From: Escherichia coli
GTDB lineage: Bacteria; Pseudomonadota; Gammaproteobacteria; Enterobacterales; Enterobacteriaceae
Strand: one strand, 5' to 3'
Length of the DNA: 64,000 nt
Assembly: GCF_046105845.1 (NCBI RefSeq)
Contig: NZ_CP151004.1
Every line of letters begins with the position of its first letter. The stretch's first letter is position 1. Positions 8,794-29,977 of this stretch are shown piece by piece. Under the pieces are notes generated by a model. It saw nothing but the letters and a program-made list of their open reading frames with translations. It was not told the DNA's origin and did not search any database. The position numbers and the translations under genes are program-made.

Positions 8794-9033
8794 TTTAACC
8801 GTCCTGTTTCGTGTTGCATCTGCGTTGACTGCACATACTCACTCTGGTCACTTACTTATGTAAGCTCCCGGAGATTCGTAAGTTTGTCAACTTGCTGAAA
8901 CCCGAAACAGTTAGGTTAAAGATAACAAGATATTAGAATCAGGCCGGGGCGTATCGCGCTCCGTAAACACGGTCGTACATCCAGCCGGTAGCCTGGTTCC
9001 TTGCATTGAGTGATGTACGGAGTTTATAGAGCA

Positions 9034-14029: not shown

Positions 14030-14273
14030 TTTCCGCGTCATGCTTCACGCCGCAGATGCGTTGGCTGCGCTCGTTCACCCCAGTCACATAGTTATCTATG
14101 CTCCTGGGGCTTCACTCACTTGCCGCGTGATTCGGCCTTTTGGCCTCACCCCTCCGGGGCCAGCGCAAGCGCTGTTCAAAACGCAATGCGTTTTGTCCTG
14201 CAACGCGAATCATTTAGCGGAAAAATCCTGGGGCTGCCAACTGGCGGCCCTTTTACAAAGAAGGATAACTAGA

Positions 14274-15675: not shown

Positions 15676-16452
15676 ATGTCCGAAACAAAAAACGAACTTG
15701 AAGATCTGCTGAAAAAAGCAGCAATCGAACCGGCGCACCGCCCGGCCTTTTTCCGTACTCTACTGGAATCCACCGTCTGGGTGCCGGGTACGGCGGCGCA
15801 GGGCGAGGCTGTGGTTGAAGATAGCGCGCTTGATTTACAGCACTGGGAAAAAGAAGACGGCACCAGCGTCATTCCTTTTTTTACCTCGTTAGAAGCACTT
15901 CAACAGGCGGTTGAAGACGAACAGGCATTTGTCGTAATGCCCGTTCGCACATTGTTTGAGATGACCCTTGGCGAAACGCTCTTCCTTAATGCCAAACTGC
16001 CAACCGGTAAAGAATTTATGCCGCGTGAAATCAGTTTGTTGATTGGTGAAGAAGGAAATCCGCTGAGCAGCCAGGAAGTACTGGAGGGCGGTGAATCGCT
16101 GATATTATCGGAAGTCGCAGAGCCACCAGCACAAATGATTGATTCTCTCACCACCTTATTTAAAACTATTAAGCCGGTGAAGCGTGCTTTTATTTGTTCA
16201 ATTAAAGAGAACGAAGAGGCACAGCCTAATTTACTTATTGGCATTGAAGCCGATGGTGATATCGAAGAAATTATTCAGGCGGCGGGAAGTGTAGCGACCG
16301 ATACATTACCTGGCGATGAACCCATCGATATTTGTCAAGTGAAAAAAGGGGAAAAAGGAATTAGCCACTTTATTACCGAACATATTGTGCCATTCTATGA
16401 ACGTCGCTGGGGTGGTTTTTTGCGTGACTTTAAACAGAACCGGATAATCTAA
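15676..16452 (+). CDS. sseB: enhanced serine sensitivity protein SseB
   Basis: Start at MSETKNELEDLL (258 aa); synteny downstream of pepB. Confidence 0.9.
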   Translation: MSETKNELEDLLKKAAIEPAHRPAFFRTLLESTVWVPGTAAQGEAVVEDSALDLQHWEKEDGTSVIPFFTSLEALQQAVEDEQAFVVMPVRTLFEMTLGETLFLNAKLPTGKEFMPREISLLIGEEGNPLSSQEVLEGGESLILSEVAEPPAQMIDSLTTLFKTIKPVKRAFICSIKENEEAQPNLLIGIEADGDIEEIIQAAGSVATDTLPGDEPIDICQVKKGEKGISHFITEHIVPFYERRWGGFLRDFKQNRII

Positions 16453-16753
16453 AATATGCCGCCCCAAAGGGCGGCATTCGGGCTTACCTGCTGTTCTGAA
16501 GGTTGTTAACCACCAATAAATTGTTGCCGGAGAGATTCCGGTTATTATTTACCTCGGTTAACAGCGCACCAGAAACAATAAGTACGATACAAAAGCACCG
16601 TATCTTCATTGTGCGGTCCATGCGAAGACCGCATCACGACAGCACCACTGGCGATATTGCCGCGATAGCAAGCGCTGAGACGCGCGTGCCCTAACGGTCG
16701 CGGAACATCCTTTCCTTAAGCCAGCGCCCGCTTGCGAGACGGCGGAAAGGTCC
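16450..16753 (-). ncRNA. candidate RyfA-like transcript (putative type I toxin mRNA)
   Basis: Minus-strand -10-like TATTAT (16766-16761) and minus-strand terminator hairpin ATGCCGCCC-tttg-GGGCGGCAT + ATTTT (16477-16451) delimit ~304 nt; position matches the sseA-sseB intergenic sRNA locus known in enterobacteria (from memory). Confidence 0.4.
16484..16609 (-). CDS. candidate small hydrophobic protein (41 aa; 45 aa from ATG 16621)
   Basis: Minus-strand ORF MKIRCFCIVLIVSGALLTEVNNNRNLSGNNLLVVNNLQNSR with one predicted TM-like segment; weak SD; in frame with an upstream strongly SD-preceded mini-ORF (16708-16691) separated by two stops. Confidence 0.3.
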   Translation of the reverse strand: MKIRCFCIVLIVSGALLTEVNNNRNLSGNNLLVVNNLQNSR

Positions 16754-16797
16754 GCAGTGGATAATACACTAACAGAACAATAATAACTCTCTTTTGC

Positions 16798-16930
16798 TTG
16801 ACAAAAAGAGGGTTACTGGCGAGTATTGTCTCCGCTGAGACGCGCTTGCATTACTACGGTAATACAACCTGCTGGAAAGGCCGCGAACCGGACCAGCAAC
16901 AAAAAACCGCCTGATTTTGGCGGTTTTTTG
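16798..16930 (+). ncRNA. candidate small RNA unit 1 (promoter to intrinsic terminator; antitoxin-like)
   Basis: Perfect -35 TTGACA (16798-16803), 17-bp spacer, GAGTAT (16821-16826); terminator ACCGCC-tgatttt-GGCGGT + T6 (16901-16930); 5' end 16833-16845 identical to plus strand 16673-16685. Confidence 0.4.
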
Positions 16931-17073: not shown

Positions 17074-17198
17074 TTGACATCGTTGATGCATAAAGCGAGT
17101 ATTGAGTAGACGAGATACACTTGCAGTAATACAACCTGCTGGAAAGGCCGCGAACCAGACCAGCAATAAAAAAACCGCCAAATTCGGCGGTTTTTTTA
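17074..17198 (+). ncRNA. candidate small RNA unit 2 (paralogous tandem copy of unit 1)
   Basis: Same architecture: TTGACA (17074-17079), 17-bp spacer, GAGTAT (17097-17102); ~73-bp block 17126-17198 ~88% identical to 16857-16930 including terminator CCGCC-aaattc-GGCGG + T7. Confidence 0.3.
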
Positions 17199-17213: not shown

Positions 17214-18059
17214 TTATTTCAATGGCTCAACCGGTAAATCTGCCCGTGCGCCCCATTCACTCCATGCGCCGTCGTACAGTTTCACGTTTGGCACATCCAG
17301 CGTCGCGAGTGCCAACAAAACCACGGCTGCCGTTACACCAGAGCCGCAGCTGACGATAATCGGTTTGTCATAGCTGACGCCGCGACCAAAAAATATCGCA
17401 TCCAGTTCATCGGTCGTTTTTAGTTCGCCTTCGCGCACCAGTTCCGTCCACGGAACGTTCAATGCACCGGGAATATGTCCGCGACGTAAACCTGGGCGAG
17501 GTTCATCAACTTCTGCGTTAAAACGTGCAGCCGGGCGGGCATCAATAATTTGCGCCGTATTTTCATGGCTTGCCAATAACACATCGGTGACTTTCACCAC
17601 GGCTTCAGGATTAAACGTGGCGTTAAACTCTCCTTCCGGCAGCTCTACTGCCCCTTCTTCTAACAGCAGATCATCACGCTGCCAGCCTGCAAGTCCACCC
17701 CCCAGAATCGACACTTTCTCTACACCAAAGGTGCGCAGCATCCACCATGCTCGTGGGGCTGAGAATAGATTACCTTCGTCATAGATAATCAGGTGCTTAT
17801 CCTGGTTAACGCCTAATTCACGCATCGCCACGGCGAACGTTTCCGGGCGCGGCAGCATGTGCGGAAGCGGGGAAGTGTGATCAGAAAGCGCTTCGATATC
17901 AAAAAATACTGCGCCGGGAATATGTCCATTCAGATACTCCTGAGCAACGTTACGATCTTCCTGTCCAGGCGACGCCATGCGGGCATCGATAATCTGAATT
18001 TCCGGGTCATCAATATGTTCGGCGAGCCAGTCGGCTCCTACAAACCATGTCGTGGACAT
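17214..18059 (-). CDS. sseA: 3-mercaptopyruvate sulfurtransferase (rhodanese)
   Basis: Start at MSTTWFVGADW (281 aa); two rhodanese domains, active-site CGSGVTA; ORF-track start 18218 is an extension. Confidence 0.93.
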   Translation of the reverse strand: MSTTWFVGADWLAEHIDDPEIQIIDARMASPGQEDRNVAQEYLNGHIPGAVFFDIEALSDHTSPLPHMLPRPETFAVAMRELGVNQDKHLIIYDEGNLFSAPRAWWMLRTFGVEKVSILGGGLAGWQRDDLLLEEGAVELPEGEFNATFNPEAVVKVTDVLLASHENTAQIIDARPAARFNAEVDEPRPGLRRGHIPGALNVPWTELVREGELKTTDELDAIFFGRGVSYDKPIIVSCGSGVTAAVVLLALATLDVPNVKLYDGAWSEWGARADLPVEPLK

Positions 18060-18265
18060 AGGCATCTCCATTTTTGCCGGGGTTAGGCTAAATTGTCGGA
18101 TGTTTAGTGAAAGGCGACAAGCAAAAGAGGCTGATTTGGCTGTCTGAGCCACAATTCTCACTAAAATTCGGATTGTATGGGCGTGATACTGAATTACATA
18201 ACGTAAATTCTCACGCATAATAATTATTCGACGTTGCTAACGGGCCATTGTGGCAGGGATGAAAA

Positions 18266-28748: not shown

Positions 28749-29867
28749 ATGCATAACCAGGCTCCAATTCAACGTAGAAAATCAACACGTATTTACGTTG
28801 GGAATGTGCCGATTGGCGATGGTGCTCCCATCGCCGTACAGTCCATGACCAATACGCGCACGACAGACGTCGAAGCAACGGTCAATCAAATCAAGGCGTT
28901 GGAACGTGTTGGCGCTGATATCGTCCGTGTCTCCGTACCGACGATGGACGCGGCAGAAGCGTTCAAACTCATCAAACAGCAGGTTAACGTGCCGCTGGTG
29001 GCTGACATCCATTTCGACTATCGCATTGCGCTGAAAGTAGCGGAATACGGCGTCGATTGTCTGCGTATTAACCCTGGCAATATCGGTAATGAAGAGCGTA
29101 TTCGCATGGTGGTTGACTGTGCGCGCGATAAAAACATTCCGATCCGTATTGGCGTTAACGCCGGATCGCTGGAAAAAGATCTGCAAGAAAAGTATGGCGA
29201 ACCGACGCCGCAGGCGTTGCTGGAATCCGCCATGCGTCATGTTGATCATCTCGATCGCCTGAACTTCGATCAGTTCAAAGTCAGCGTGAAAGCGTCAGAC
29301 GTCTTCCTCGCTGTTGAGTCTTATCGTTTGCTGGCAAAACAGATCGATCAGCCGCTGCATCTGGGGATCACCGAAGCGGGTGGTGCGCGCAGCGGGGCGG
29401 TTAAATCCGCCATTGGTTTAGGTCTGCTGCTGTCTGAAGGCATCGGCGACACGCTGCGCGTATCGCTGGCGGCCGATCCGGTCGAAGAGATCAAAGTCGG
29501 TTTCGATATTTTGAAATCGCTGCGTATCCGTTCGCGAGGGATCAACTTCATCGCCTGCCCGACCTGTTCGCGTCAGGAATTTGATGTTATCGGTACGGTT
29601 AACGCGCTGGAGCAACGCCTGGAAGATATCATCACTCCAATGGACGTTTCGATTATCGGCTGCGTGGTGAATGGCCCAGGTGAGGCGCTGGTTTCTACAC
29701 TCGGCGTCACCGGCGGCAACAAGAAAAGCGGCCTCTATGAAGATGGCGTGCGCAAAGACCGTCTGGACAACAACGATATGATCGACCAGCTGGAAGCACG
29801 CATTCGTGCGAAAGCCAGTCAGCTGGACGAAGCGCGTCGAATTGACGTTCAGCAGGTTGAAAAATAA
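28749..29867 (+). CDS. ispG: 4-hydroxy-3-methylbut-2-en-1-yl diphosphate synthase
   Basis: 372 aa; [4Fe-4S] Cys ligands (CPTCSR ... GCVVNGPGE). Confidence 0.95.
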
Positions 29868-29977
29868 TAACGTGATGGGAAGCGCCTCGCTTCCCGTGTA
29901 TGATTGAACCCGCATGGCTCCCGAAACATTGAGGGAAGCGTTGAGGGTTCATTTTTATATTCAGAAAGAGAATAAAC

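Follow-up and report, generated by a model that had tools for sequence, protein, structure and literature searches.

The closest described relative of the RNA examined here is TimR (STnc2070) of Salmonella enterica (Andresen 2020; Eleftheraki/Holmqvist 2024, 2026). Salmonella TimR is transcribed divergently from ryfA/timP; its 5' end base-pairs to a site in the timP leader that precedes the ribosome binding site (RBS) by more than 60 nt, and TimP translation is blocked (PMC7667032). The evidence for this pairing consists of compensatory seed and target mutations together with in vitro translation, and complementary, terminator-flanked sequences were found upstream of timP in all enterobacteria analysed in that study (PMC7667032). 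The Salmonella timP leader folds into four stem-loops, of which SL1 and SL3 form a pseudoknot that is required for translation (PMC11228461). Structure probing placed the TimR site in SL2; TimR binds the active, pseudoknot-containing conformer, opens SL2 and destabilises the pseudoknot (PMC11228461). The timP mRNA needs no processing (PMC11228461), and its activation is controlled by an RNA structural switch without processing (PMC13000454).

Two further descriptions come from closer relatives of the DNA studied here. In Shigella dysenteriae the homologue RyfB1 (Fris 2017), an RNA of ~100 nt divergent from ryfA and complementary over 16-17 nt to the RyfA variable region, specifically lowers RyfA1 (PMC5333039). 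In E. coli K-12 the RNA ECS011 (Shinhara 2011; Chen 2002) was detected by deep sequencing, has a predicted sigma-70 promoter, yielded bands of ~95 and ~100 nt on strand-specific Northern blots, and was equated with the older IS129 (PMC3175480). Outside this family, IstR-1/tisB, OhsC/shoB, AgrB/dinQ and OrzO/zorO likewise have a divergent antitoxin sRNA that pairs with the toxin 5'UTR far from the RBS. They have no sequence homology to timR, the Rfam AgrB, ohsC and OrzO-P matches in our searches remaining below gathering scores, and timP differs from these divergent type I systems in its unprocessed mRNA and its activation by a structural switch (PMC11228461).

Here we analysed a plus-strand sRNA candidate in a 64-kb stretch of E. 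coli DNA (the window), which an initial annotation had compared with TimR/timP and other divergent type I systems. The kinship with TimR was seen correctly, but the relationship is more than a resemblance: the candidate is timR itself, the antitoxin sRNA of the timPR type I toxin-antitoxin locus, with a class-A seed allele. We put the probability at about 0.9 that this RNA is TimR and that it works through seed pairing with the timP leader. The novelty that the initial annotation implied does not stand, as TimR/RyfB1/ECS011 has already been published; the RNA and its pairing with the timP/ryfA leader were described in 2017-2020, and work on the mechanism followed in 2024 and 2026.

The timP/ryfA locus between sseB and sseA

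The minus strand of the window carries a full-length match to the Rfam ryfA model (RF00126, 308 bits), which indicates that the leader architecture of timP is probably kept. On the same strand sseB ends at 16452 and sseA occupies 17214-18218. The stretch was matched in 5425 of 5426 complete E. coli genomes, with timP, sseA and sseB annotated beneath the match. The nearest of these genomes showed 98.9% identity across 5 kb, so that the window appears to derive from a somewhat divergent E. coli-like lineage. Judged by its sequence, the region is the Escherichia sseB-ryfA/timP-sseA locus, the same locus and the same divergent arrangement as in Salmonella.

The 41-aa open reading frame in the ryfA transcript scored 79.7 bits against the NCBIfam model NF040796 (toxic_TimP; cut-off 45), and its annotated ATG lies at 16609. 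The predicted product is a small hydrophobic membrane protein, as is usual for a type I toxin. It differs from Salmonella TimP in length (41 versus 38 aa) and in its C-terminal half. The timR gene lies directly upstream of timP/ryfA in the sseA-sseB spacer, the two transcripts being divergent and their 5' ends 76 nt apart (16832 and 16755). The antitoxin and toxin genes do not overlap as they do in Sok/hok and Sib/ibs; the complementarity is confined to a 17-nt repeat. The features of the locus are collected in Table 1.

Elsewhere in the window, Rfam matches above gathering score were obtained for the iscRS stability element (8923-9032, plus strand) and sroE (29867-29958, plus strand). A match to AaHKsRNA22 (14131-14203, minus strand) was barely above threshold (45.3 versus 39.8).

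Table 1. Features of the timPR locus in the window
Feature	Position	Strand	Basis
timR promoter: -35 TTGACA (16798-16803), 17-nt spacer AAAAGAGGGTTACTGGC, -10 GAGTAT (16821-16826)	16798-16826	+	Direct reading; conservation
TimR sRNA, class-A seed, equal to ECS011/IS129, RyfB1-like, about 97-99 nt	16832-16930	+	K-12 RNA match; homologue alignment
TimR seed, specificity-determining 5' end	16833-16849	+	Complementarity; unpaired in MFE and consensus folds
TimR body: small hairpin ATTAC-TACG-GTAAT (16850-16863), central hairpin TGCTGG...CCAGCA (16870-16898)	16850-16898	+	Consensus fold
TimR intrinsic terminator	16903-16930	+	Hairpin of -13 kcal/mol, then T6
timP mRNA (RyfA RNA)	16451-16755	-	Rfam RF00126 ryfA
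timP coding sequence, 41 aa, MKIRCFCIVLIVSGALLTEV...	16484-16609	-	ORF list; NCBIfam; RefSeq timP in matching genomes
Predicted TimR binding site, 5' half and loop of timP 5'UTR stem-loop 2, mRNA nt 67-83	16673-16689	-	Complementarity; Rfam consensus hairpin
Second TimR-like gene (distal orphan): TTGACA (17074-17079), 17-nt spacer, GAGTAT (17097-17102), RNA about 17109-17197	17074-17197	+	Sequence; alignment

Promoter, RNA body and terminator of timR

The -35 and -10 hexamers and the 17-nt spacing reported in the initial annotation are present, as is the intrinsic terminator, whose hairpin (16903-16927, AAAACCGCC-TGATTTT-GGCGGTTTT) is followed by a T run that reaches 16929. A consensus promoter and terminator scan of the window listed neither element; the promoter was missed because its -10 GAGTAT agrees with TATAAT at only 3 of 6 positions. 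Both were nevertheless retained on the strength of direct folding, conservation across genera and the K-12 transcript data. Homologues in Salmonella, in Citrobacter and elsewhere in Escherichia retain the hexamers, their 17-nt spacing and the terminator, although their spacer sequences differ. The scan did list a promoter-like site on the minus strand at 16777-16804 (TTGTCA, 16 nt, TATTGT), the -35 of which overlaps that of timR. Since the overlapping motif is nearly palindromic (TTGACAA/TTGTCAA), a single -35 region may serve both divergent promoters or be contested between them.

The first 71 nt of the RNA (16832-16902) are exactly identical to the K-12 ECS011 sequence CCGCUGAGACGCGCUUGCAUUACUACGGUAAUACAACCUGCUGGAAAGGCCGCGAACCGGACCAGCAACAA, and promoter and terminator are identical in K-12 too. 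A relative with the identical gene thus makes the predicted RNA. For the window, the plus-strand RNA of ~95 nt proposed earlier is predicted at a length of ~98 nt, with the correction that K-12 RNA-seq places its 5' end at 16832, one base before the 16833 first assigned.

The RNA aligns along its whole body with the TimR of Salmonella and also with that of Citrobacter, so that homology to an experimentally defined TimR was found in both sequence and structure. With Salmonella TimR it shares the 5' seed, the small hairpin, a near-identical central hairpin and the terminator. In a consensus fold built on 10 homologues, the pairs of the small hairpin were kept through GC/AU double changes, and the terminator stem showed compensatory CG/UA changes between genera. 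The central hairpin was almost invariant, 28 of its 29 nt being identical to Salmonella TimR. The seed was the most variable segment of the RNA and co-varied with the target.

Rfam was found to hold no TimR family. At permissive E-values, only sub-threshold matches were obtained on the timR strand (rimP leader, AgrB, RNAI, ohsC and OrzO-P). These lay on the terminator-containing 3' parts of both sRNA genes and were rejected as chance or terminator-driven matches.

Predicted pairing of the seed with the timP leader

The repeat noted in the initial annotation was recovered exactly: 16833-16849 (CGCTGAGACGCGCTTGC) and 16673-16689 (CGCTGAGACGCGCGTGC) agree at 16 of 17 positions, 13 of them contiguous. 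Allowing up to one mismatch, the 13-mer occurs at these two sites only in the 64 kb, and none of 100 shuffles gave two or more hits. A duplex prediction, suggested earlier as a check, gave -33.2 kcal/mol for the first 24 nt of TimR with the 150-nt timP leader, a value that none of 1000 shuffled seeds reached (shuffle mean -19.8).

The target lies just downstream of a leader mini-ORF, as had been described, and ends 63 nt before the TimP ATG rather than the ~50-60 nt first estimated. The Rfam ryfA consensus draws a hairpin here, of which the target forms the 5' half and the loop. The 5' end of the RNA is accordingly complementary to stem-loop 2 well upstream of the RBS, and the target in Salmonella timP has the same position, within SL2 and over 60 nt before the start codon. 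The two pairs differ in the seed/target sequence itself, which is CGCUGAGACGCGC in the window and CACUACGGUGUGCC in Salmonella. Repression of TimP translation by base pairing, and with it the rescue of cells from TimP toxicity, is known from experiments on the Salmonella pair only (PMC7667032).

The sole mismatch between seed and target stems from a SNP in the target (G at 16686 on the plus strand, giving C instead of A at mRNA nt 70). The SNP is private: a megablast search with the 51-nt target segment of the window found no match in any of the 5426 complete E. coli genomes; the version with A at nt 70 is present in 2897 of them. With A, pairing extends over 17 of 17 positions and the duplex reaches -37.4 kcal/mol, as against -33.2 with C, while stem-loop 2 folds at -15.8 kcal/mol with A and at -11.6 with the C of the window. 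The SNP therefore costs ~4 kcal/mol both in the TimR duplex and in the SL2 stem.

The mini-ORF is present at 16691-16708 on the minus strand (AUG UUC CGC GAC CGU UAG, MFRDR*) and ends 2 nt before the TimR site. It has 5 codons in the window, whereas the same AUG in K-12 opens 24 codons that run through the TimR site, so that it is not conserved as an ORF. We rejected it as a coupling uORF, since its codon number differs from K-12 and since mutation of the uORF start codon in Salmonella left timP translation unaffected, the uORF there being dispensable (PMC11228461). In the predicted fold, AGGAAAGG just 5' of the mini-ORF pairs with CCUUUCC at the 5' end.

Co-variation of seed and target across genera

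Twelve informative loci were compared: the window, E. coli N3, K-12 and SCPM-O-B-8794, E. whittamii, Escherichia sp. E1V33, Shigella flexneri, S. sonnei, three Citrobacter and Salmonella enterica. A pattern scan of genome contigs for ryfA SL4 proved too strict and yielded 6 loci; the other genera were recovered via TimP protein look-ups. The 12 loci, from four genera, contain seven distinct seeds, and in each locus the timP target matches. Cognate seed/target pairs agreed on average at 16.0 of 17 positions (15-17 counting G-U pairs) and non-cognate pairs at 11.8. When each seed type was represented once, only 2 of 5040 permutations reached the observed match total.

Seed and target thus co-vary among homologous loci, as predicted for functional base pairing, where complementarity is kept while the sequence changes. 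Loss of the match in related genomes had been named at the outset as the finding that would speak against the proposal; the sequence of the match does vary between lineages, and its complementarity is kept. Within Escherichia and Shigella, a TimR seed matching the resident timP was present at all 13 loci considered (the window, 10 E. coli, S. flexneri and S. sonnei).

Some lineages have lost parts of the locus. In Citrobacter amalonaticus and C. farmeri (one locus each) and in two loci of E. marmotae, the 17-nt sequence common to seed and target joins the TimR body directly to the timP leader, with loss of both promoters and of timP SL1. It would seem that the DNA between the two direct repeats has been deleted recurrently, in three lineages, and such a seed-target deletion should inactivate both genes. 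The same two E. marmotae loci and two loci of Escherichia albertii lack the terminator hairpin of TimR, and immediately behind the sseA stop the A and T runs have shrunk to TTTTTT or TTTTT. Any TimR transcript from these terminator-less loci would consequently read into sseA antisense.

Allele classes and orphan copies in E. coli

Seed and target fall into classes in E. coli. Class-A TimR, with promoter and seed as in the window, was found in 4539 of the 5426 complete genomes and the class-A timP target in 2897; the class-B (K-12-type) target was found in 1971 and class-B TimR in 2102. The surplus of genomes with the class-A RNA over those with its target suggests an orphan class-A TimR in roughly 1600 genomes. 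Four architectures were present in the sampled loci: a single A/A pair, a single B/B pair, the K-12 type (timP-B, proximal TimR-A, distal TimR-B), and that of the window (timP-A, proximal TimR-A and a distal copy with a third seed), which occurs in about 6% of E. coli genomes.

K-12 illustrates the orphan state. Its locus (NC_000913.3, 2652500-2656000) holds two copies, at locus positions ~857-956 and 1190-1287, of which only the distal one is annotated as timR (b4811, C0614). This paralogue has the same body and terminator as the window RNA and is the cognate partner of K-12 timP; it differs in being the distal, sseA-proximal copy and in its class-B seed GCUGUGAAGCACCUGC, where the distal copy in the window has the third seed. 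The proximal K-12 RNA, ECS011/IS129, is identical to the TimR of the window and unannotated. In K-12-type genomes it adjoins a class-B timP that it matches at 12 of 17 positions, whereas the window RNA lies beside its cognate class-A target; the RNA is thus able to persist where a cognate target is missing.

Upstream of the distal timR of K-12, at locus positions ~1010-1060, a remnant of a second ryfA comprises the promoter and roughly the first 22 nt (CGGCCCTTTCCGCCGT...). The remnant shows that K-12 descends from an ancestor in which ryfA/timR was duplicated in tandem, as it is in Shigella dysenteriae. By published description, the full ryfA/ryfB pair is present twice in S. dysenteriae; the window, by contrast, combines a single ryfA with two TimR-like genes. 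The target in the window carries CGCGT, a version of the variable region grouped as 'ryfA1-like' (PMC5333039).

The second TimR-like gene of the window adjoins sseA, with the terminator kept and the small hairpin missing. Between its seed GACGAGATACACTTGC and that of class A, 5 of 16 positions differ. Pairing of this distal RNA with the timP of the window was no better than chance (z about 0), and a search of the 64 kb for further sites of its seed found none beyond its own copy. The third-seed copy is also present in E. coli N3 and was found in 348 of the 5426 complete genomes.

Proposed mechanism and alternative explanations

According to the reading that we prefer, a sigma-70-type promoter would drive a plus-strand RNA of ~98 nt with an unpaired 17-nt seed, two body hairpins and a terminator. 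The seed would pair with the 5' half and loop of SL2 in the divergent timP mRNA, 63 nt upstream of the start codon, and by analogy with the homologous Salmonella pair this would act without occlusion of the RBS. As in Salmonella, pairing would open SL2 and destabilise an SL1-SL3 pseudoknot that the structured leader needs for translation initiation. We infer this pseudoknot step for the timP of the window entirely by transfer from the Salmonella pair, which has a different seed. The antitoxin-like role that the initial annotation proposed, a divergent sRNA pairing by its 5' end with the leader of a RyfA-like toxin gene, is supported by the locus, by homology, by the identity with ECS011 and by the complementarity kept between lineages.

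One alternative accepts both the RNA and the pairing but places the main role of TimR in setting the level or activity of RyfA, as one half of an sRNA-sRNA pair, with the block of TimP secondary and TimP itself of minor importance in Escherichia. Overexpression of RyfB1 lowers RyfA1 RNA in S. dysenteriae, where RyfA1 protein was not detected (PMC5333039), and the ryfA phenotypes of UPEC are complemented by ryfA variants with a disrupted TimP ORF (PMC8205139). In APEC a ryfA deletion is attenuated and a ryfA-timR double deletion resembles the wild type; deletion of timR gives no clear phenotype, and TimP toxicity has so far not been shown in E. coli (PMC13188913). Since phenotypes in E. coli and Shigella are ascribed to RyfA as an RNA and TimP is undemonstrated there, TimR may also, or mainly, control RyfA level or activity. 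Against this as the main role, the timP ORF of the window is intact and passes the curated TimP model, and conservation of TimP at the protein level extends over Escherichia, Citrobacter and Salmonella. In Salmonella, moreover, deletion of timR raises TimP protein with little change in the mRNA, and TimR blocks translation in vitro (PMC7667032). The two roles are not mutually exclusive, and we consider it improbable that control of RyfA replaces the translational block as the principal one.

A second alternative takes the 17-nt repeat and the sRNA-like gene as neutral leftovers of local duplications, devoid of present regulatory function like the orphan copies. The region has indeed been duplicated and rearranged, as the two TimR-like genes in the window and the second-ryfA remnant in K-12 attest, and orphan copies without a matching target exist. 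Drift of this kind is very hard to reconcile with co-variation of seed and target over seven sequences in four genera, with promoter hexamers and spacing kept in diverged contexts, with the occurrence of the promoter-plus-seed segment, at about 95% identity or higher, in 4539 of the 5426 E. coli genomes, and with expression of the RNA in K-12 (PMC3175480).

Finally, that the true transcript is the minus-strand IS128 (Rfam RF00125, 16887-17065, 166.7 bits against a gathering score of 80) instead of the plus-strand RNA is scarcely credible and was rejected, because strand-specific Northern blots of K-12 detected the opposite-strand ECS011/IS129 and no IS128 RNA, the original detection had used a double-stranded probe (PMC3175480), and the overlap of IS128 with TimR is limited to the final 44 nt, in the terminator region. 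The IS128 match on the minus strand is confined to the spacer that separates the two TimR genes and to the antisense of the proximal TimR terminator. The Rfam family may describe the wrong strand.

Implications for the timPR family

The identification is of practical use for annotation. RefSeq/PGAP leaves timR unannotated in the genomes that we inspected (the feature tables give 'none' beneath it), because Rfam has no TimR family; Rfam carries instead the opposite-strand IS128, which experiments failed to detect (PMC3175480). The K-12 annotation applies the name timR to the distal paralogue alone.

Orphan copies are frequent: the class-A RNA beside a class-B timP is found in about 30% of E. 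coli, K-12 included, and the third-seed distal copy of the window in about 6%. Escherichia timPR apparently consists of discrete seed/target specificity classes reshuffled by recombination, which leaves expressed orphan TimR paralogues behind. One tentative proposal, which we think rather unlikely, is that such orphans are not decaying duplicates but have gained new trans targets or confer standing immunity against a timP of another class. The 17-nt repeat would in addition make the locus self-destructing, given the seed-target deletions in three lineages.

The residual interest of the locus is modest and lies in its specificity classes, orphan paralogues and annotation gaps. The allele classes form a natural set of specificity variants for the study of timPR, and together with the orphan copies they could explain why timR/ryfA phenotypes differ between E. 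coli pathotypes.
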